Positions 6,477-39,220 of a stretch of 64,000 nucleotides of DNA are shown one piece after another. The stretch is from positions 138,033 to 202,032 of the forward strand of contig NZ_QKWN01000006.1 of assembly GCF_007279655.1 (NCBI RefSeq), in the 5' to 3' direction. How positions within the stretch are numbered: the stretch's first letter is position 1; each line of letters starts with the position of its first letter. The translations under genes and the position numbers were made by a program. This DNA is from Robertkochia solimangrovi (GTDB taxonomy: Bacteria > Bacteroidota > Bacteroidia > Flavobacteriales > Flavobacteriaceae). Under the pieces are notes generated by a model, which was not told the origin of the DNA, did no database searches, and saw nothing but the letters and a program-made list of their open reading frames with translations.

Positions 6477-8603
6477 ATGAAACAAAAAACACCTTGGGGT
6501 CTTGCCCTTAACACCGCTGTTATTGCCTTCGCAGGATTACTGCAGAGCCAATACGCTAATGCGCAGGAAATGACGGGCTATTCGCCTTCAGCTATAGCCG
6601 CTCAGGAAAATCTGGAAACCACATTTTTGAATACCGTTGATTTCCCACAATACCGCGAACATCTCAGCCAGCTTACCAAACAACCGCATATTGCAGGGAC
6701 CCCTGCCAATGAAAAGGTTGCAGATTACATTGCTCAGATTATGGGGAATGCGGGGATGGATGTGAAGCGTTATCCCTATGACATCTATATGGCACCGGAA
6801 GCCGGAACTTCGCTGGTGGAGCTGGTCACCCCGATCAGGTTACCGCTCAATCAGCAGGAAAATATTCTCCCTGAAGATCCGTTTTCCGAGGATCCGACCC
6901 TGCTGAAGGGATGGAACGCCTATTCCGGAAGCGGTGATGTAACTGCGGAGGTTGTATATGCCAATTACGGTACCAAAGAAGACTTTGAGAAATTGGCAGA
7001 AATGGGCATCGATGTTAAAGGTAAGATCGTACTGGCACGTTATGGAGGGAACTTCCGGGGGTACAAAGCCAAATTCGCTGAAAAATATGGAGCCTCAGGA
7101 CTGATCATTTTTACCGATCCCGGAGATAGTGGTTATATGAAAGGACTCACCTATCCGGAAGGAGTGTATTATAATGAGAGTGCTATTCAACGTGGGTCTC
7201 TTCTCACGGTAGATTATACCGGAGATCCCCTTACCCCGTTTGAACCCGCACTTCCTCTTGATGGAAAGAAAAAGGTGAAACGCCTCGATCCCGCTAAAAC
7301 CGACTTACACACCATACCGGTACTACCGTTACCCTATGGTTCGGCAAGAGAGATCATCAGCCGAATGAACGGACAGGTGGTTCCAAAAGGCTGGCAAGGA
7401 GGCTTGCCCTACACCTATCGTCTGGATGGGGGGAGTGAACTAAAGATCCGTTTAAAAGTGGACCAGAAAAAGGATTTTGTAAGGGTGAACAATATTGTGG
7501 GTACCTTTAAAGGGAGTACCTATCCTGATGAATGGATCATTTTGGGATGTCACTATGACGCATGGGCATTTGGTGCTACCGATCCGAACAGCGGGACAGC
7601 TATGCTGCTTTCTCTGAGTGAAGCCCTGGGAGAATTGGAAAAGAAAGGATTTTCTCCGAAAAGATCCATCCTGATAGCCCATTGGGATGCTGAGGAACAC
7701 GGGGTTATCGGTTCTTCAGAATGGGTTGAACAGATGAAGGATGAATTAGGAGCCAAGGCCGTTGCCTATATGAATTTTGACGGAGGGGTTTCCGGCAAGA
7801 ACTTTGGGGGCTCTTCCTCTCCCAGCTTAAAGAATATCATGACCGAAATGGCTAAAAAAGTGGATTATCCCTATACCGACAAATCGCTTTTTGATCAATG
7901 GAAAGGCGATAAAGAACAACCGAATATCGGGAATCTGGGCGGAGGTTCAGACCATATCGGTTTCTATATGCATGTGGGGGTGCCATCGCTGAGCGGTGGT
8001 TCGGGTGGTCCTACCCTCTATCATACCAATTACGACGATTTTCATTTTTATGAAACCTATGTAGATCCCGAATTTAAAATGGGCGGAACGATTGAACAAT
8101 GGGCAGGATTAATGGCCCTGCGCATGGCAAATGCTGATGTGATACCGTATGATGTAAAGCGCTATGCGACTGATCTGAAAGACCATTTCGACAATGCCTT
8201 GAAAAAGGTAAAAACCATTCAAAGTGATTTCAACGGATTTACCAAAGTGGATGCAGCTATGGAAGTTCTGGAAAAGAATGCTTCATTGCTGGAGGACAAA
8301 CTTTCTGCAAGTATCCGAAATGGTTCCTTATCTAAAAAAGAAATAAAAAGCATCAATAAACAACTTATTGCCCTTGAAAAGAGTTTTATCGACGAGAAGG
8401 GAATGTATTACGGTTCCTGGTACAGATCGTTATATGCTTCGACGGATCCTTTCAGTGGTTATGCTTCCTGGATTCTTCCCGGTATTGAATACGAAGTATC
8501 GCTCGGTTCCACCGATCGCATGGAAGAATGGGATCAGCGTTATGCAGCTGCCATAGAATCCCTTGCCGGTAAAATACTCGCTTTGGCACAAAGTCTGTCC
8601 TGA
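6477..8603 (+). CDS. M28-family peptidase with PA domain and transferrin-receptor-like dimerisation domain (glutamate carboxypeptidase II-like)
   Basis: 708 aa. Signal peptide, PA-domain region, M28 zinc-site context (HWDAEEHGVIGSSEW, MNFDGG) and a C-terminal TFR-like dimerisation region. Confidence 0.8.
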   Translation: MKQKTPWGLALNTAVIAFAGLLQSQYANAQEMTGYSPSAIAAQENLETTFLNTVDFPQYREHLSQLTKQPHIAGTPANEKVADYIAQIMGNAGMDVKRYPYDIYMAPEAGTSLVELVTPIRLPLNQQENILPEDPFSEDPTLLKGWNAYSGSGDVTAEVVYANYGTKEDFEKLAEMGIDVKGKIVLARYGGNFRGYKAKFAEKYGASGLIIFTDPGDSGYMKGLTYPEGVYYNESAIQRGSLLTVDYTGDPLTPFEPALPLDGKKKVKRLDPAKTDLHTIPVLPLPYGSAREIISRMNGQVVPKGWQGGLPYTYRLDGGSELKIRLKVDQKKDFVRVNNIVGTFKGSTYPDEWIILGCHYDAWAFGATDPNSGTAMLLSLSEALGELEKKGFSPKRSILIAHWDAEEHGVIGSSEWVEQMKDELGAKAVAYMNFDGGVSGKNFGGSSSPSLKNIMTEMAKKVDYPYTDKSLFDQWKGDKEQPNIGNLGGGSDHIGFYMHVGVPSLSGGSGGPTLYHTNYDDFHFYETYVDPEFKMGGTIEQWAGLMALRMANADVIPYDVKRYATDLKDHFDNALKKVKTIQSDFNGFTKVDAAMEVLEKNASLLEDKLSASIRNGSLSKKEIKSINKQLIALEKSFIDEKGMYYGSWYRSLYASTDPFSGYASWILPGIEYEVSLGSTDRMEEWDQRYAAAIESLAGKILALAQSLS

Positions 8604-25806: not shown

Positions 25807-26778
25807 TTGCATAACATTATGAGTACAGACACTGTTAAACGTTTCGACAGGATCATTGCGATTCTGGTCCAGTTACAATCAAAGCGAATCGTAAAAGCCC
25901 AGGAACTAGCCGATCGTTTTGAAGTAAGTCTGCGCACCATCTATCGGGACGTCAGAACCCTGGAGACCTCGGGCATCCCCATTGTAAGTGAAGCAGGTGT
26001 AGGGTATTCGATCATGGAAGGTTACCGCCTTCCTCCGGTCATGTTCACCCGTGAAGAAGCAGGTAGTTTTGTCGCTGCTGAGAAGTTCATGCAAAAATTT
26101 CTGGATAAGACCCTGGGAAGTTATCATGAATCAGCCATGTTCAAGATCAAATCGGTGCTAAGAGGGAGAGAAAAAGACTGGGTGGAAGCACTTGAATCTC
26201 AAATCGTAGTCGATCCTTCTGCAGATCTTTTCAATACGGAGATACCCGACGCATTACAGATCATTTTTGAAAGTATTGCTGAAAAGAATCAGGTTTTTCT
26301 TAGTTATCACGCTTCCCGTAGTGACGAAACTACGGAAAGAAACATCGAACCGGTAGGACTCTTTCATGAAAATGGATTCTGGTATATCATGGCTTATTGC
26401 CATTTTAGAAAAGATTATCGACAGTTTCGCACCGACAGGATCGTGGATATTAAACGTACTAACTTAGACTTTACCCTGGATCATGGAAGTTTAGATGAAT
26501 ATCGAAAGGACACCGATTCCTGTCCGAAGATAAAAGTCAGGATCGCTGTAGATAAACATGTGATCCCTTATATAAACAGTGGAAAGAATTATTATGGTTT
26601 CGTTTCCCAGCAAGCTGAAGGCAATACGGTTGAAATGACTTTTATGACCCGCGATATTCACAACAGCTTTTCGAGATGGTACCTGATGTTCTGCGACTAC
26701 GCCACCATCCTCGAACCGGAAAGTTTGAAAATCAGGGTACGTGAAATTATTGAAAAAGGACTCACTAACATTGGTTAG
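25807..26778 (+). CDS. WYL-domain transcriptional regulator (HTH + WYL + WCX-like C-terminus; YafY/PafBC-like)
   Basis: 323 aa. N-terminal HTH (VKAQELADRFEVSLRTIYRDVRTLE), a WYL core (GFWYIMAYCHFRKDYRQFRTDRI) and a C-terminal extension. Confidence 0.8.
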   Translation: MHNIMSTDTVKRFDRIIAILVQLQSKRIVKAQELADRFEVSLRTIYRDVRTLETSGIPIVSEAGVGYSIMEGYRLPPVMFTREEAGSFVAAEKFMQKFLDKTLGSYHESAMFKIKSVLRGREKDWVEALESQIVVDPSADLFNTEIPDALQIIFESIAEKNQVFLSYHASRSDETTERNIEPVGLFHENGFWYIMAYCHFRKDYRQFRTDRIVDIKRTNLDFTLDHGSLDEYRKDTDSCPKIKVRIAVDKHVIPYINSGKNYYGFVSQQAEGNTVEMTFMTRDIHNSFSRWYLMFCDYATILEPESLKIRVREIIEKGLTNIG

Positions 26779-26785
26779 TTACCAT

Positions 26786-29497
26786 TCAGATCTCTTCTTC
26801 CATCATTTCCGAGGTCTCTTCCTGACCATTATTAACGGTAGTTTCATCTTCTTCAGGCTCTTCAATGGTCTCACCGGCAGCGTTCCTTTGCTCCAGTAAA
26901 AAATATAAACCATTCATGGAATCTTCATAAACAGAGATAGCAACTCCGTCACTGTTCTCTGCCAACTCATTATTTTCATTATACCGGCTGATCTTACCAA
27001 CAATTCCGGAGTTGAACAGTTCATAATCATAAATGGCAGTTCCGTAGGTATCATTCATAAGCTTCAAATCTGCACCATAGGTTTCAGACCGACTGATCTC
27101 ACCCACCGGCTCCCAGGTATAACGTATCTTATGATATCCGTAATCACCGATCACAGGAACACCGTCCTTATCAAAATATGCATAGGTCAGGGTATGCCCG
27201 AGTTCATTTAATTCGATTTTTGTAAAGGAGATTCCAGCATAATTATCAACAGTACTATCATCTTCATCCAGAAACCGGAGTGAAGTTAACCAGCCACGCT
27301 CATTATAGGTCTTAACCTCTGCACTGATCCCGGTTGCTTCTCTTGCCCGTCTGCCATGCTTATCAAAAAATGCGATCTTCAGTAATGAGCCGTATGCGTT
27401 ATAATATTTCTTGCTGGTACAGGCACCCTCAATCAATTTTGAATCGATACCATACTTTTGAAGAATCGTTTCATTTCCCCATTTATCGTAAGATTTTCGG
27501 GTCATATGAACTCCCTCGGCCAGGATTGGTTCCCCTGTACCATTAAAAATACGGGACTCAATCAAGCGGTCACGACTATCATATTTAAATTTAATTATGC
27601 TTTTTATGCCTTCCTCTTCCGTCGCAGTGTATTCTGTTTGCTGGATGACATTTCCATGATCATCAAAATCGTATTCATAACGGGCTACACCATCAACGTT
27701 GGCAATATTGATTCCCAGGGAATCCAGTGATCTTTTCTCCCTGGCATACCCTTCAGCATTACGATTAAAAGTATATGTACAGATTCCATCCGGGGTTTTT
27801 GCCGGATTTTCGTCCGCTCCGAAATAACGCTCCATTAATAAATTTCCCGAAGCGTCCTTTTTAGATTCGATGATGGCCACATTATTAGTATTCTCTATAA
27901 TATTCCCATAGGCATCGAGATTTAATTGACGAACAATGCTATCACCCATATATTCATAACGGGTACCTCCCCATTTATAATCATCATACCTGAGAACATA
28001 TCCCGGATAATAAGTAGCCTCATATCGCTTCCTTCCCAGATCATCATACGCTGTAACTCTTTCGAAGATATCGTCGTTGGCAATAATGGGCTCATGGTTT
28101 ACATTGAATCGCTTCTCGCTTATTTCACGATCATTACGGTCATAACGATATTCATATATGGATGCTCCGTTATCATCATAAGTAAGCTGCCCGTCTTCAT
28201 CCAGAGAGCTAACCTGAATTACATTCCCTCGTTCATCATATTCATATTTCAGATTGAAATCTGATAAATATTTGGCAGGCCTGCCCTGGTCATCATACAT
28301 ACGGTAAGCGATCTTTCGATGTTGCATGTTATATTCAAATTCAGACCGGCCTATGAGGTCTTTATCCAGAACCAGCTGCAGCTTATGATCCAGATTTTCC
28401 ACGCTTATGGTATGTCCGCTTCCGTCGAGTTTTATACGACTATGAAAAATTCCATGCTCATCAGCTACCGATTTGCCTTTTTTATCAAGATATGAACTGA
28501 CATAAGTAGAATCGACGGCATTGTAAACCCATTTGATCTGACTATAATTGAAAGGGGACACTTTTTGATCCTTAGCATCCAAAAACTCGATCAACCGTTC
28601 ATCATCACTTGTTTTTACAGATCTGTGTCGGTAGTTTTTAAGTTTCGTATTGAAGGTGCCATCACTGTTTAAAAGCCTGAATTCGATTTCACCATCTCTG
28701 TTTTTAATGATACGGGTGATGGCAGTTTCGAAATATCCTCCGTTAACCAAGGTTCCGTTCTTATAAAACCTTATTTCTTTGACCCAGGCACTTGCGTTAT
28801 GAATCTCATAAACTTCATTATTTTCAAAATCGTAATCATCGGCTGGATAAGAATATAGTATCGTTCCATCATGGGTAACGTAGATCTTTCTGTAATACTT
28901 CGAGCTATTACTCGAATAACGACGGTAATGCTGAATGTTCTCATCCCCATAATAGGCAGTCTGGCGTAGCCAGTCATCGATCTGTAATTCCCAAAACCTT
29001 TGTTTTGGTGTATCGGCATTATGGTCGGCTTCAGTGTCATACTGATTCTGCAAACTATCCCGCAAGGTATTGTATTTGAGTCTCAGGGAATCCATTACCG
29101 CATAGTTTAGTCCATTCATTCCCAATGTTACAATATCTCTTCTCAAAAGTCGCGCACAATATTCCGTTATATTGAAATGATATTGTTCGTGGGTGAGTAC
29201 ATTATAGGAATCGTATTCATCCTTCAATTTTTCCGATTGATTCGGATCCATATAAGCAAAGACCCGGTTATTGGTATCTGTGATTAGTCGCGGACACGAT
29301 ATTCCGGAATAGATGGTTGCCACGTATTCGTCTTCCAAATAAGAAACCTCTGTAAAATCATCCCAGGATAGTGATCTTTCTGACCAGGTTAGATTCGGTT
29401 TGACTATCGTTGATTTCCTTTCATTGTGGGTAACACCAAAACCAAGTATTAGGATCAGTAAAATTCCGGAAGTAATAAGATGGTGTTTAGTTTTCAT
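26786..29497 (-). CDS. secreted multidomain protein: N-terminal HExxH (DUF922-like putative zinc peptidase) domain, long RHS/YD-type repeat region and an acidic disordered C-tail
   Basis: 903 aa. Signal/TM N-terminus and an HEQYH motif. Repeated YxYDxxGN units (YEYDERGNV, YEYDFDDHGNV, KYDSRDRLI, TAYDDLGRK). C-terminus is EEPEEDETTVNNGQEETSEMMEEEI. No RHS core/toxin tip was recognised. Confidence 0.55.
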   Translation of the reverse strand: MKTKHHLITSGILLILILGFGVTHNERKSTIVKPNLTWSERSLSWDDFTEVSYLEDEYVATIYSGISCPRLITDTNNRVFAYMDPNQSEKLKDEYDSYNVLTHEQYHFNITEYCARLLRRDIVTLGMNGLNYAVMDSLRLKYNTLRDSLQNQYDTEADHNADTPKQRFWELQIDDWLRQTAYYGDENIQHYRRYSSNSSKYYRKIYVTHDGTILYSYPADDYDFENNEVYEIHNASAWVKEIRFYKNGTLVNGGYFETAITRIIKNRDGEIEFRLLNSDGTFNTKLKNYRHRSVKTSDDERLIEFLDAKDQKVSPFNYSQIKWVYNAVDSTYVSSYLDKKGKSVADEHGIFHSRIKLDGSGHTISVENLDHKLQLVLDKDLIGRSEFEYNMQHRKIAYRMYDDQGRPAKYLSDFNLKYEYDERGNVIQVSSLDEDGQLTYDDNGASIYEYRYDRNDREISEKRFNVNHEPIIANDDIFERVTAYDDLGRKRYEATYYPGYVLRYDDYKWGGTRYEYMGDSIVRQLNLDAYGNIIENTNNVAIIESKKDASGNLLMERYFGADENPAKTPDGICTYTFNRNAEGYAREKRSLDSLGINIANVDGVARYEYDFDDHGNVIQQTEYTATEEEGIKSIIKFKYDSRDRLIESRIFNGTGEPILAEGVHMTRKSYDKWGNETILQKYGIDSKLIEGACTSKKYYNAYGSLLKIAFFDKHGRRAREATGISAEVKTYNERGWLTSLRFLDEDDSTVDNYAGISFTKIELNELGHTLTYAYFDKDGVPVIGDYGYHKIRYTWEPVGEISRSETYGADLKLMNDTYGTAIYDYELFNSGIVGKISRYNENNELAENSDGVAISVYEDSMNGLYFLLEQRNAAGETIEEPEEDETTVNNGQEETSEMMEEEI

Positions 29498-30272
29498 AGG
29501 ATACCGGTTGTTTTTTAGAAATTAAAACATAGGTACTTTCAAAAGGATAGCAAAGGATGCTGATCACCAGAATATAAATGAGATCAAGTGGAAAAATCTC
29601 AAAAGGCAGCCCTCCAAATTGCTTAAAATACATAGTACACAGTATCCAGTAAAAGGTTGAAAACAGCATACGTTCTCGGAATCTTTTGAAGGAATCCGGA
29701 ATGGCATAACCTGAAAAACTTATCCAGAGATATAAAAAATAGAATACTAACGGGGTCAAAAAAAGTACAGCTAAAACTAACGGTATTGAATAGGCGAAAA
29801 TATGGGCTATCAATACAACCACAAGTACACTCGATAATAAAGGAGTACTCATCAAAATGAGTCGGGATACATTATGCTGAGTGAGACAGAATAATTTTTG
29901 AAAAGTCAAAACCTCTGTGTTATTCGTATAAGGATCAATCGCTTTAGGATTAGTACCGTAACGATTTTCTAACCCTGACCCTTCACTAAATAACTGCACT
30001 AAAATATAGAATGGTATAAATTGATTAAATCCAGATTCTCCCAGATCATGACATCGCTTTGTTCCCTGAGCTATCATAAACCAAGTAACTATAGCACCCA
30101 TCAAATAGAATAGCGCTGGTATCTGGTCCAGGGTATTTTCAAACGCGAAAATAATACTATCGGCTGCAATTGCAATAATAAGGCTCAATCCAAATTCAAG
30201 TCGTCTGATGCGACCGTCGAACGAAAATGGTGCTAAAAACATAATAAGTAGGTTGGTCAATCTGAAAAGCAA
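29487..30272 (-). CDS. DUF805-family inner-membrane protein with additional C-terminal TM region
   Basis: 261 aa. DUF805 hallmarks (GRIRRLEF, RCHDLGESG, ENRYGTNP) and extra TM helices. It overlaps the downstream large gene by 11 bp, suggesting translational coupling. Confidence 0.65.
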   Translation of the reverse strand: MLFRLTNLLIMFLAPFSFDGRIRRLEFGLSLIIAIAADSIIFAFENTLDQIPALFYLMGAIVTWFMIAQGTKRCHDLGESGFNQFIPFYILVQLFSEGSGLENRYGTNPKAIDPYTNNTEVLTFQKLFCLTQHNVSRLILMSTPLLSSVLVVVLIAHIFAYSIPLVLAVLFLTPLVFYFLYLWISFSGYAIPDSFKRFRERMLFSTFYWILCTMYFKQFGGLPFEIFPLDLIYILVISILCYPFESTYVLISKKQPVSYEN

Positions 30273-34562: not shown

Positions 34563-35321
34563 ATGAAACACAAACGCAGAGAATTTTTTAGGAAAATGGG
34601 TTTGGCCGGTATAGCCTTAGGAACTGTGCCAAATATAATTGCTCAAGAATTAAAATCAGAAGTACCGACTACTCCAACTCTGGATCCGGGTATGAAGATC
34701 CTTTTTCAAGGAGATTCGATCACCGATGGGAATCGCAGTAGAAATGACGACTGGAATCATGTTATGGGCCATGGATATGCCTATCTTATTGCCAGCAGAC
34801 TCTGGTATGACTTTCCTGATAAACAATATATGTTTTACAACCGTGGTATCAGTGGAAATACAGTGAAGGATCTTAACGATCGCTGGCAGGAAGACACCTT
34901 AAAACTCAATCCTGATCTGATCAGCATTCTCGCAGGGGTCAATGATATCTTTTACGATATTTATGACCAAAAAACAATTGACTACAAAGCCTTAATGGAA
35001 TCATACTCCGAACTTATAGAAAAAAGCAGGGAAAATAATCCGAACGTAAAAATAGTCTTATGTGAACCTTTCACACTCAGGGTTGGTCATGTAGAAAAGG
35101 ACCCTGCCAATTGGGAAAGCAAAGTCGGTAAACTTCAGGAATTGGTTCGGGAACTTGCCGCAACTTATAAAGCCCATTTTGTCGCTCTTCAAAAACCTTT
35201 TAATGATCATTTAAAACTAGCTCCTGCAAAATACTGGATCTGGGATGGCATACATCCCATGCCTGCCGGACATGAACTGATTGCCCGTGAATGGCTTAAA
35301 CAGACCCAAGGACTTTATTGA
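34563..35321 (+). CDS. SGNH/GDSL-family hydrolase, Tat-secreted
   Basis: 252 aa. Twin-arginine leader (RREFFRKMGLAGIALG), a GDSITDG block and a C-terminal DGIHP block. Confidence 0.8.
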   Translation: MKHKRREFFRKMGLAGIALGTVPNIIAQELKSEVPTTPTLDPGMKILFQGDSITDGNRSRNDDWNHVMGHGYAYLIASRLWYDFPDKQYMFYNRGISGNTVKDLNDRWQEDTLKLNPDLISILAGVNDIFYDIYDQKTIDYKALMESYSELIEKSRENNPNVKIVLCEPFTLRVGHVEKDPANWESKVGKLQELVRELAATYKAHFVALQKPFNDHLKLAPAKYWIWDGIHPMPAGHELIAREWLKQTQGLY

Positions 35322-36925: not shown

Positions 36926-39220
36926 CTAACTTTTAAGTTTTCTTTCAGCGACAAAAGGTTGATGGTAATGTCGTTCTCCTGTTGCTTTATACAAGGCATT
37001 TGCCAGGGCACCAACAACCGGAGGGAAAGGTGGCTCTCCTAAACCTGTAGGGTGAATATCATTTTGAACGAATGCTACTTCCAGTTCTTTAGGTGCTTCA
37101 CTATGTCGGATCATCCGATACCTGTCGAAATTGGATTGTTCAGGCCTACCTTCTTTGAAGGTCAGACCGCAGAACATAGACTGTCCGATACCATCAATGG
37201 TACCCCCTTCCACCATATTAGAGGCTGCGATCGGATTTACCACGATTCCGCAATCAACTGCACACCATACTTTCTCGATGACTGGAGTATCGTTATCCAT
37301 TGTCATTTCAAGTACATTGGCGACATAACTGTTATGGCAGAAATAGGCAGAAACCCCTCTGTGGTGGGTACTATCCTGATCCCATCCCGATTTTTCCCGT
37401 ACGAGTTTCAGTACACCTGCGTAGCGGTCGGCTTCATAATCATTATTTTCTCCTACCGGATCTTTTTGCGCTTTTTCGAGTAATTCCAAACGGAAATCAA
37501 TCGGATCCTTACCTACCGCTTCCGCGACTTCATCGAGGAATGCCTGTTCGACACCAGCGATAAAGTTCGAACGTGGAGCCCGGAAGGCACCTACGGAAAT
37601 ATTCGAATCCATTTCCCATGATTCTGCAAGATAGTTATCGATGGCTCCTGCCGGGAATCTGTTTGCAAACAACGGACTCTCAGGAATACCCCCTGCTCTT
37701 ACATGGAATCCGATAAGGTTGTTATCCGCGTCCAGGGCAGCTCTGTAATAGGCATGATAGGAAGGGCGATAATTACCAAAGGTCATGTCATCTTCCCGGG
37801 TATATACCAGTTTAACAGGAGCTTTAACCTTCTGAGAAATCGCGGCCGCTTCTACAACGAAATGTCCGTATAATCTTCTACCAAAGCCTCCTCCCTGACG
37901 GGTCATTTGAATATCGATCTTTTCCAGCGGGAGTCCGATACGGGCAGAAACTGCCTTTTCCATGAATTCCGGTGTCTGAATAGGTCCGATCAGTGTTGCT
38001 TTCTCATCGGTCACGTCCGCATAGAAGTTCATAGGCTCCATCGTGTTATGAGCAAGAAAGGGTGCTGTATAACTTCTTTCGATCACCTTGGCAGCATTTT
38101 TAAACGCTTTTTCGGGATCGCCATCTTTGCGTACTTCTTTAGCCAGCTTTTCAGACATGGTCTCCATACGTTGCTGATGAACCTCCGTACTTTCAAATCC
38201 GGCGGGTACCTTACTCGGATAAGGATCACCACCTCCAAAGCCAGTATAATAATCTTCGTAACTTTCAAAAGGCTCCCACGTTACTTTGAGTGCTTTCTTA
38301 GCCTTCATAACTTCCCAGGTGGAATCACCGGTGATTACCACCAGCTCTTTAAAGGCATCCGCATCAAACATACTCATGGTATATCCTTCTTCATAGGTCT
38401 TAATGGTGAAAATATCCTTAATACCCGGCATATCGCGAACTCCGGTATCATCAAACGATTTGAACTTGAGTCCAAAGGCCGGGGGATGAATGATCATTGC
38501 GATCTGCATTCCTTCCTTATAGGTGTCAAGTCCGAATAAAGGTTTTCCGGTAACGATCTTCATTCCGTCCACATTATTACGGGAGGTCCGTATGATCTTA
38601 AAGTCTTTAACTTCCTTGAGCTCGACTTTTTCCGGAACTTCAAGAGTTGCCGCCAGCGAAGCCATTTCTCCATACCCGGCCGATTTTCCACTAGCTTCAT
38701 GGTAAAGCACGCCGGCATCCGTGGTGATCTCCTCTACGGGAACCTGCCAGGTCTTTGCTGCCGCTTCTTTGAGCATATGTCGTGCAGTTCCCCCAGCCAT
38801 TCGAAGTCCGTCCCATCCTTGTCGGATAGACTGACTACCTCCGGCTATCTGTCTTGAAAATACTGCTGTATTCAGGGGAGCCTGTTCAACGATCACATTA
38901 TTCCAATCGATATCCAGTTCTTCCGCGACGATCATCGGCATGGAAGTTTTTACGTTCTGACCGATCTCAGGATTTGGAGACATGATGGTGACTACGCCAT
39001 TTTCTCCGATCTTCAGAAACCCATTGATCTCATACCACTCCTCCGGTAATTCCAGAGTAGCCATGGTACTTTCAGTTTCGGTTTTACAGGAAGCGAACCA
39101 ACTGAAGCCAATCAGCATTCCCCCACCGGCCATAGCCGAGGTCTTTAAAAAGGAACGTCTTCCCAATGATGTTTTTATAAGTGCCACTTGATTATTTTTT
39201 AAGTTATTGATGGAATACAA
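36926..39220 (-). CDS. xanthine dehydrogenase/aldehyde oxidase-family molybdopterin-binding subunit (IorB-like), Tat-exported
   Basis: 764 aa. Tat leader (RRSFLKTSAMAGGGMLIGF) and molybdopterin-binding domain layout. It is paired with an upstream 2Fe-2S subunit gene. Confidence 0.85.
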   Translation of the reverse strand: MYSINNLKNNQVALIKTSLGRRSFLKTSAMAGGGMLIGFSWFASCKTETESTMATLELPEEWYEINGFLKIGENGVVTIMSPNPEIGQNVKTSMPMIVAEELDIDWNNVIVEQAPLNTAVFSRQIAGGSQSIRQGWDGLRMAGGTARHMLKEAAAKTWQVPVEEITTDAGVLYHEASGKSAGYGEMASLAATLEVPEKVELKEVKDFKIIRTSRNNVDGMKIVTGKPLFGLDTYKEGMQIAMIIHPPAFGLKFKSFDDTGVRDMPGIKDIFTIKTYEEGYTMSMFDADAFKELVVITGDSTWEVMKAKKALKVTWEPFESYEDYYTGFGGGDPYPSKVPAGFESTEVHQQRMETMSEKLAKEVRKDGDPEKAFKNAAKVIERSYTAPFLAHNTMEPMNFYADVTDEKATLIGPIQTPEFMEKAVSARIGLPLEKIDIQMTRQGGGFGRRLYGHFVVEAAAISQKVKAPVKLVYTREDDMTFGNYRPSYHAYYRAALDADNNLIGFHVRAGGIPESPLFANRFPAGAIDNYLAESWEMDSNISVGAFRAPRSNFIAGVEQAFLDEVAEAVGKDPIDFRLELLEKAQKDPVGENNDYEADRYAGVLKLVREKSGWDQDSTHHRGVSAYFCHNSYVANVLEMTMDNDTPVIEKVWCAVDCGIVVNPIAASNMVEGGTIDGIGQSMFCGLTFKEGRPEQSNFDRYRMIRHSEAPKELEVAFVQNDIHPTGLGEPPFPPVVGALANALYKATGERHYHQPFVAERKLKS

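Follow-up and report, generated by a model that had tools for sequence, protein, structure and literature searches.

A stretch of 64,000 nucleotides (nt) from Robertkochia solimangrovi (contig NZ_QKWN01000006.1, positions 138,033 to 202,032; hereafter the window) carries on its minus strand two overlapping genes that, judging from their arrangement in related genomes, are one conserved unit, in some relatives even a single gene. The upstream gene (29487..30242, minus strand) encodes a DUF805-family polytopic membrane protein of 251 amino acids (aa), recognized by its Pfam match and by its identity to P0100, and the downstream gene (26786..29497, minus strand) begins with ATG and encodes a protein of 903 aa in which a transmembrane anchor is followed by a DUF922-like domain, then by 22 hairpin repeats of RHS-like type, and finally by an acidic tail. 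Both products are 100% identical to annotated R. solimangrovi proteins, namely P0001 for the large protein and P0100 (251 aa, NCBI) for the small one. An earlier note on this DNA had described the two open reading frames (ORFs) and an 11-nt overlap between them (29487-29497, minus strand; sequence ATGAAAACTAA), all of which are present, with one correction to the upstream start. The mechanically called DUF805 ORF (29487..30272, minus strand; 261 aa) runs from TTG 30272; the start is most likely ATG 30242 (MFLAPFSFDGRIRR) instead, because P0100 has 251 aa and because fused homologues open with MF(T/K)SPFSFKGRIRR in the alignment. Within the overlap, the TAA stop of the DUF805 gene falls in codons 3-4 of the downstream M-K-T-K, and translation of the two genes is probably coupled through these 11 nt.

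Approximately 75 full-length homologues of the large protein were found, all from marine Flavobacteriaceae, and many homologues of ~1130 aa (e.g., ~1132 aa) carry DUF805 at the N-terminus and are therefore fusions of both window proteins. The arrangement was followed in 36 genomic loci, each with a relative that is either complete or truncated at an end, and DUF805 was located in them by tblastn. In 24 of the 36, the gene immediately upstream is a separate DUF805 gene, and an in-frame fusion occurs in four more (L007, L013, L031, and L034, the last with a short linker); another N-terminal multi-transmembrane extension without the DUF805 core is found in five loci (L008, L018, L021, L028, and L033), and the single anchor stands alone in three (L005, L029, and L035). 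The previous suggestion that the two genes act as a unit or operon is thereby strengthened, as the pair is co-located in most related loci, with short conserved overlaps where the genes are split. These overlaps measure 11, 4, 8, or 14 nt: the 11-nt geometry of the window recurs in L001, L003, L006, L009-L012, L014, L015, and L022, it is combined with a TTG start in Aequorivita (the TTG-start loci being L024-L026), and R. flava carries the pair with a 4-nt overlap. Each junction type is confined to one clade of a neighbour-joining tree, and the arrangement is therefore inherited rather than accidental. All-versus-all clustering of the ORFs in 37 loci returned the pair as the only shared element (35 loci), the next neighbour cluster being limited to at most 8 loci, and no toxin, immunity, secretion-system, regulator, cell-wall, or polysaccharide gene is a conserved neighbour in these 37 loci. 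The occurrence of both fused and split forms makes a direct prediction, namely that DUF805 and DUF922 interact. In Aquimarina (L009, L010, L012, L014, and L015, at about 7975-8000 of each locus), a GGAGG Shine-Dalgarno-like sequence, unusual for Bacteroidota, lies ~8-10 nt before the large-gene ATG within the DUF805 coding sequence; it may just reflect the purine-rich Arg/Lys/Glu codons of a basic loop.

The small protein matches Pfam DUF805 (PF05656), the family of E. coli YhaH/YhaI type inner-membrane proteins, with 42.6 bits against a cut-off of 25.7, and its N-terminal 100 residues carry the family hallmarks GR.RR and KR.HD..SG. This core (residues 1-100; 29943..30242, minus strand), delimited from the translation and from conservation in 27 partner sequences, keeps three motifs in those sequences, i.e., MFxxPFSFxGRIRRxE, QGxKRCHDxGxSGFxQxIPFY, and NxYGxNPK, all of which would face the cytoplasm according to charge and topology reasoning. 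A transmembrane extension of the core had been proposed before and is found as four further helices (~residues 118-241; 29520..29891, minus strand), placed by the AlphaFold2 model of the fused homologue P0005, in which they span residues 118-142, 147-169, 179-204, and 213-239. The extension is specific to the family of the pair and poorly kept in sequence, and only P0100-P0104 cover the window DUF805 query end to end in the homologue search. Other DUF805 proteins differ in that they carry cytoplasmic FHA, DnaJ, GYF, or kinase domains (a co-occurrence taken from homologue records, in which domain order was not checked) instead of a four-helix extension and a coupled or fused, large and probably periplasmic partner.

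The large protein was modelled with AlphaFold2 on the basis of 47 homologues, which resulted in a predicted local distance difference test score (pLDDT) of 89.7 and a predicted template-modelling score (pTM) of 0.85. It opens with an N-terminal hydrophobic helix (residues 3-27; 29417..29491, minus strand), evident from both the model and hydropathy, that most likely acts as a signal-anchor and may even be cleaved as a signal peptide. A short low-confidence linker connects this helix to an alpha/beta domain, in which four short strands lead into three long helices. This is the DUF922-like putative zincin domain (residues 35-185; 28943..29395, minus strand), delimited by the model, profile searches, and alignment. 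The HEQYH sequence already singled out as zincin-like occupies residues 103-107 (29177..29191, minus strand) and, on residue conservation, is a putative zinc-binding and catalytic site: among the 47 homologues E104 and H107 are invariant, H103 is kept in at least 90%, and E112, Y113, R116, R119, Y153, D154, H159, Q166, and W169 are invariant as well. The order of elements in the model, from a beta-sheet through the HExxH helix to a second long helix, is also zincin-like.

The assignment of this domain to DUF922 (PF06037; COG5661, “predicted secreted Zn-dependent protease”), made earlier from the letters of the sequence, holds through profile links and shared invariant residues but not through a direct Pfam score, which stays below the cut-off of 27 whether the whole protein (15.9 bits) or the isolated domain (19.3 bits) is searched. 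DUF922 is the top family for 18 of 18 family N-domains tested, all of them sub-threshold (best E 2e-6). A profile search with the N-domain returned 4888 cluster representatives, most of which are stand-alone proteins of ~180 aa, and reached stand-alone DUF922 proteins at ~1e-25; four of five stand-alone matches tested pass the PF06037 cut-off (38-43 bits), the fifth scores 26.2 against 27, and relatives in Bacteroidota are annotated as “DUF922 domain-containing Zn-dependent protease”. The alignment places the same invariant residues in the window domain and the stand-alone proteins, and HExxH, E112, Y153-D154, and H159 are invariant or nearly so both in the 47 family members and in 29 DUF922 proteins that stand alone. 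The two groups share the same fold elements, the patterns W..F, HExxHF...E..R, YD...H, and Q..W, and an N-terminal signal or anchor, whereas the typical DUF922 protein stands alone at ~180 aa and the window domain continues into ~700 aa of repeats and has a polytopic membrane protein as its coupled partner. DUF922 has been proposed as a zincin because its HExxH is fully conserved, the accompanying FFAS score being weak at -7.4 (PMC3650047), and the window domain would likewise be an active zinc metallopeptidase. Sequence and profile searches of the PDB with the whole protein and with the N-domain returned nothing significant, with YenC2 appearing only at E = 3.6.

Most of the remaining chain is made up of 22 beta-hairpin repeats with a period of ~32 aa (residues 201-871; 26885..28897, minus strand), delimited by the AlphaFold2 model and by matches to RHS_repeat (PF05593; 24.4 bits, cut-off 22) and TIGR01643 (YD_repeat_2x; 19.4 bits, cut-off 15.8), both of which are marginal; TIGR01643 is the sole NCBIfam match, and a weak Pfam DUF3836 match is also present. 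The YD-type repeats reported earlier are thus recovered above the cut-offs of both families, with the strict motif YxYDxxGN[VL] occurring once and its loose form nine times. The best structural matches of the repeats in Foldseek are Rhs, teneurin, and Tc proteins, and the list also includes single-layer beta-sheets and the TcdA CROPs. The hairpin unit and its local curvature are RHS-like in the model, whereas the body as a whole departs from the standard Rhs cocoon, with a global TM-score to Rhs shells of at most 0.36; the structure prediction that had been recommended thus shows RHS-like hairpins in a body of another shape than that cocoon. This body is neither a beta-propeller nor a lipoprotein fold. 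As stated in the earlier note, the RHS-associated core is missing (no TIGR03696 match at E <=1, no DPxGL motif in the sequence) and so is a toxin tip; Pfam and NCBIfam searches of the large protein gave no toxin, peptidoglycan-binding, or carbohydrate-binding domain, and no domain that would link it to a delivery system (PAAR, VgrG, or another T6SS part, TcA, or T7SS). Moreover, the last 100 residues are conserved rather than variable among family members. The acidic tail (residues 879-903; 26789..26863, minus strand), defined by composition and pLDDT, does have 12 D/E in its last 25 residues, but it is disordered (pLDDT <50 at residues 882-903) and absent from homologues, i.e., a lineage-specific trait and not a family feature.

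The large protein had been described as secreted, a view that is not supported by the fused homologues, in which alignment and the P0005 model turn the apparent signal peptide into the eighth helix of one chain. Routes out of the cell are not evident either: no T9SS (type IX secretion system) C-terminal sorting domain (PF18962 / TIGR04183) was matched at E <=1 in Pfam and NCBIfam, and a lipobox is absent because the first 30 residues of the large protein hold no Cys. The loop ahead of the anchor is strongly basic (RKRTPRIVKPK in P0005; SKKQPVSYEN and then MKTKHH in the window), and alternating loop charges through the four-helix extension put the post-core linker in the cytoplasm and the large domain outside. 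Similarly, the number of transmembrane segments before the anchor is even in four independent architectures, which are DUF805 plus four helices, DUF805 alone (P0021, L034), four helices alone (L008), and two helices (L018, L021, L028, L033). When the FHA, kinase, and DnaJ domains are taken as N-terminal fusions, the N-terminus of DUF805 would therefore lie inside. Taken from charge and parity, the large protein is most likely a periplasm-facing inner-membrane protein that is anchored rather than secreted.

Distant relatives extend this picture for each half of the large protein. For the repeats, 23 distant homologues (P0077-P0099) match the repeat region alone (query residues ~300-860; E 1e-35 to 4e-9, 21-26% identity) and carry an N-terminal Ser/Thr kinase, TIR, or STAND/AAA domain, some with a C-terminal PDZ, and exactly one transmembrane segment separates the cytoplasmic domain from the repeats in 21 of the 23. 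As this repeat class recurs after a membrane helix in signalling proteins, it is implied to be extracytoplasmic, and the TIR-bearing versions would mirror the topology of Toll-like receptors, assuming that the repeats lie outside the cell. The repeat part of these homologues comprises 600-900 aa of the same 32-aa YD-like repeats, and the Pfam entry PF27244 is recorded on three of them. For the N-terminal half, eight loci of Cytophagales (L037-L044; Algoriphagus, Cyclobacteriaceae, Flexithrix, and Flammeovirgaceae) carry this anchor and N-domain as well, with HEQYHFNITEY (match at about 8001-8520), followed by an unrelated C-terminal part of ~150-300 aa that has no repeats. Distant DUF922 proteins with RHS/MORN-like repeats (P0238, P0239, P0235, and P0179) stand behind other membrane modules, one of which is a CxxC...C zinc-ribbon followed by 4-5 transmembrane helices, and the membrane module is therefore interchangeable. 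The neighbourhoods of four stand-alone DUF922 genes have no common partner; in two of them der (EngA) and the gene of a generic ABC ATPase (209-227 aa, left unnamed by NCBIfam) precede the DUF922 gene (L048, 3314-4555; L049, 3375-4555, where the two genes overlap by 4 nt), and the other two loci are without the der/ABC ATPase arrangement.

Every domain of the pair comes from a known family that is either uncharacterised or differently used. The closest structural comparators are the shells of Rhs, Tc BC, and teneurin proteins (Tse15, 8uxt; RhsP, 8h8a; RhsA, 7q97; YenB/YenC2, 4igl; teneurins), among which bacterial teneurin-like proteins have also been counted as YD-repeat shells (PMC13018210). 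They are built from the same unit as the window protein, a beta-hairpin whose turns read YD..G / D..G, and teneurins likewise open with a membrane anchor. However, the Rhs-type period is ~21 aa against ~32 aa in the window protein, which has only 22 hairpins and is devoid of the RHS core with its aspartyl autoprotease, of an encapsulated C-terminal toxin, and of an immunity gene. Its cargo-like domain is, by contrast with those shells, an N-terminal and conserved putative enzyme, and its location would be the inner membrane and periplasm rather than the cell surface or medium. The small Bacteroides proteins of the DUF3836/BF3112 type (3msw, 4r8o, 4r03) have ~100-140 aa, about three hairpins, and no enzyme domain. 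The single-pass kinase, TIR, and STAND proteins share homologous repeats of the same period in the same place after the membrane helix but have a cytoplasmic signalling domain in place of DUF805 and no DUF922 domain. The literature searched describes neither this combination of domains nor the 32-aa variant of the repeat, the setting at the inner membrane, or the fusion and fission of DUF805 and DUF922, in line with the earlier statement that the architecture fits no described system; neither protein of the pair is matched by a PADLOC model at E <=0.1.

The favoured explanation, with a probability of approximately 0.5, is a self-contained inner-membrane complex in which a polytopic DUF805 subunit is joined by a co-translated, periplasm-facing DUF922 metallopeptidase whose RHS-like array binds, senses, or encloses a substrate. 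The two genes would encode the two halves of this complex, their physical association being suggested by pairing and fusion. The upstream product would present its conserved core motifs to the cytoplasm and continue into four transmembrane helices, and the downstream product would use its N-terminal helix as an anchor in that same membrane, so placed that the DUF922-type HExxH domain, taken as an active zinc metallopeptidase, is exposed to the periplasm right at the membrane surface. The curved sheet of ~670 residues formed by the 22 RHS-like hairpins may then serve as a scaffold that binds, senses, or encloses the substrate of the enzyme. Translational coupling through the 11-nt overlap would let both chains be made together and in equal amounts, an outcome that gene fusion would equally give in some relatives, and the module is expected to need no secretion system, toxin, or immunity partner and to work by itself. 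Several points weigh against this explanation. The membrane module can be replaced (by two or four transmembrane helices or by a zinc-ribbon with transmembrane helices) or is absent (L005, L029, L035), and DUF805 is therefore not strictly required by the putatively periplasmic part. The proposed topology is derived from the positive-inside rule and from parity, and it holds only when the short third hydrophobic segment in DUF805 re-enters the membrane instead of spanning it; this segment is a broken, low-confidence helix in the fused-homologue model. Signal-peptidase cleavage between GFG and V could free the large protein into the periplasm, the low global TM-score sets the shape of the repeats apart from a standard Rhs cocoon, and the literature searched on DUF805 and DUF922 consists of passing mentions only.

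A possible but rather doubtful alternative is an envelope sensor, in which the repeats are an extracytoplasmic ligand receptor whose state is relayed via the transmembrane helices to the cytoplasmic DUF805 motifs, which recruit a soluble partner, and in which HExxH is regulatory or ligand-binding rather than proteolytic. In Ser/Thr kinases, TIR proteins, and STAND NTPases, the same 32-aa repeats lie C-terminal to the one transmembrane segment, DUF805 is fused elsewhere to FHA, kinase, DnaJ, or GYF domains, and the conserved DUF805 core residues cluster in loops that are probably cytoplasmic, all of which fits a sensor; however, neither an output domain nor a conserved regulator gene accompanies the pair in the 37 loci, several clades keep the periplasmic part without a DUF805 core, and strict conservation of HExxH is more typical of catalysis. 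A structural or adhesive function, by which the repeats would bind an envelope polymer such as peptidoglycan or polysaccharide and tether it to the inner membrane, with the zincin-like domain trimming its peptide part or being vestigial, is unlikely. Its appeal lies in a fold class common to wall- and carbohydrate-associated YD proteins, in the single-layer sheets and TcdA CROPs among the Foldseek matches, and in a large, elongated domain that the model anchors beside the membrane, but no recognised peptidoglycan- or carbohydrate-binding domain was matched in Pfam and NCBIfam, and a conserved cell-wall or polysaccharide gene is not found nearby.

The two remaining explanations are far less credible. 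A classical Rhs/YD polymorphic toxin or contact-dependent effector, the latter raised in the earlier note, would account for the RHS_repeat and TIGR01643 matches and for the Rhs effectors among the top structural matches, but it is largely refuted by a conserved C-terminus without a toxin domain, by the missing TIGR03696 core and DPxGL motif, by the low global similarity to Rhs shells, and by an N-terminal segment that is evidently an inner-membrane helix; the contact-dependent module likewise finds no toxin, immunity gene, or secretion-system neighbour in the 37 loci, and no PAAR, VgrG, TcA, T9SS domain, or conserved neighbour of any kind accompanies the protein. Equally remote is a single gene broken by a frameshift (through sequencing error or as a pseudogene) or joined by programmed frameshifting into a fusion protein. 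Fused homologues of ~1132 aa do exist, and an A6 run (29510-29515) lies just upstream of the overlap, where one A fewer would fuse the frames. Against this, >20 genomes from many genera have the genes split with a proper start at the same position, the overlaps are clade-specific and the junction sequences vary from clade to clade, and NCBI annotates two intact proteins. Furthermore, a stop closes the downstream frame two codons ahead of the large-gene ATG in L010 and L022, leaving no room for a conserved shift site; there is therefore no conserved programmed frameshift, and one at the A6 run was rejected.

RHS/YD repeats are known almost only as toxin-packaging cocoons, and a related but distinct array on a putative enzyme, probably tethered to the inner membrane and free of any toxin logic, points to a wider use of this fold. 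DUF805 and DUF922 are widespread families of no known function that the inner-membrane complex proposed above would bring together in one testable system, and the sharing of the repeat class with membrane-linked kinase, TIR, and STAND proteins is a hint of a recognition domain outside the cytoplasm that all of them have in common. A more speculative extension, advanced only tentatively, is that the 32-aa-period RHS-like array is an unrecognised class of extracytoplasmic receptor or cage, which here would display or surround a membrane-proximal zincin and link it to the cytoplasmic DUF805 face and in distant relatives would be wired via one transmembrane helix to TIR, Ser/Thr-kinase, or STAND domains; the family would then be one of transmembrane envelope-surveillance devices, with the TIR versions as topological analogues of Toll-like receptors.

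The surroundings of the pair in the window had been described as an accessory-looking block, which is not borne out: GC is flat at 0.37-0.41 across the region of the pair, transfer RNA and Rfam scans gave no match anywhere in the window, no mobile-element genes were seen among the window ORFs examined, and the neighbours are not conserved even in R. flava. The tail-to-tail regulator mentioned in the earlier note is present, as a convergent HTH-WYL-WCX gene (25807-26778, plus strand) 7 nt from the large-gene stop that matches the PADLOC “WYL” model at E 3e-60. The WYL, MarR, SPFH, and DinB neighbours are incidental, because only the pair recurs across loci, and a link with either the WYL or the MarR gene was rejected since neither occurs in any of the 36 related loci or in R. 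flava. Promoter and terminator scans gave nothing bearing on the operon. Elsewhere in the window, GC rises to ~0.47 at 7001-8000 and 37001-39000 over a background of ~0.40, and an ORF of 252 aa (34563-35321, plus strand) starts with MKHKRREFFRKMGLAGIALG, which looks like a twin-arginine export signal.

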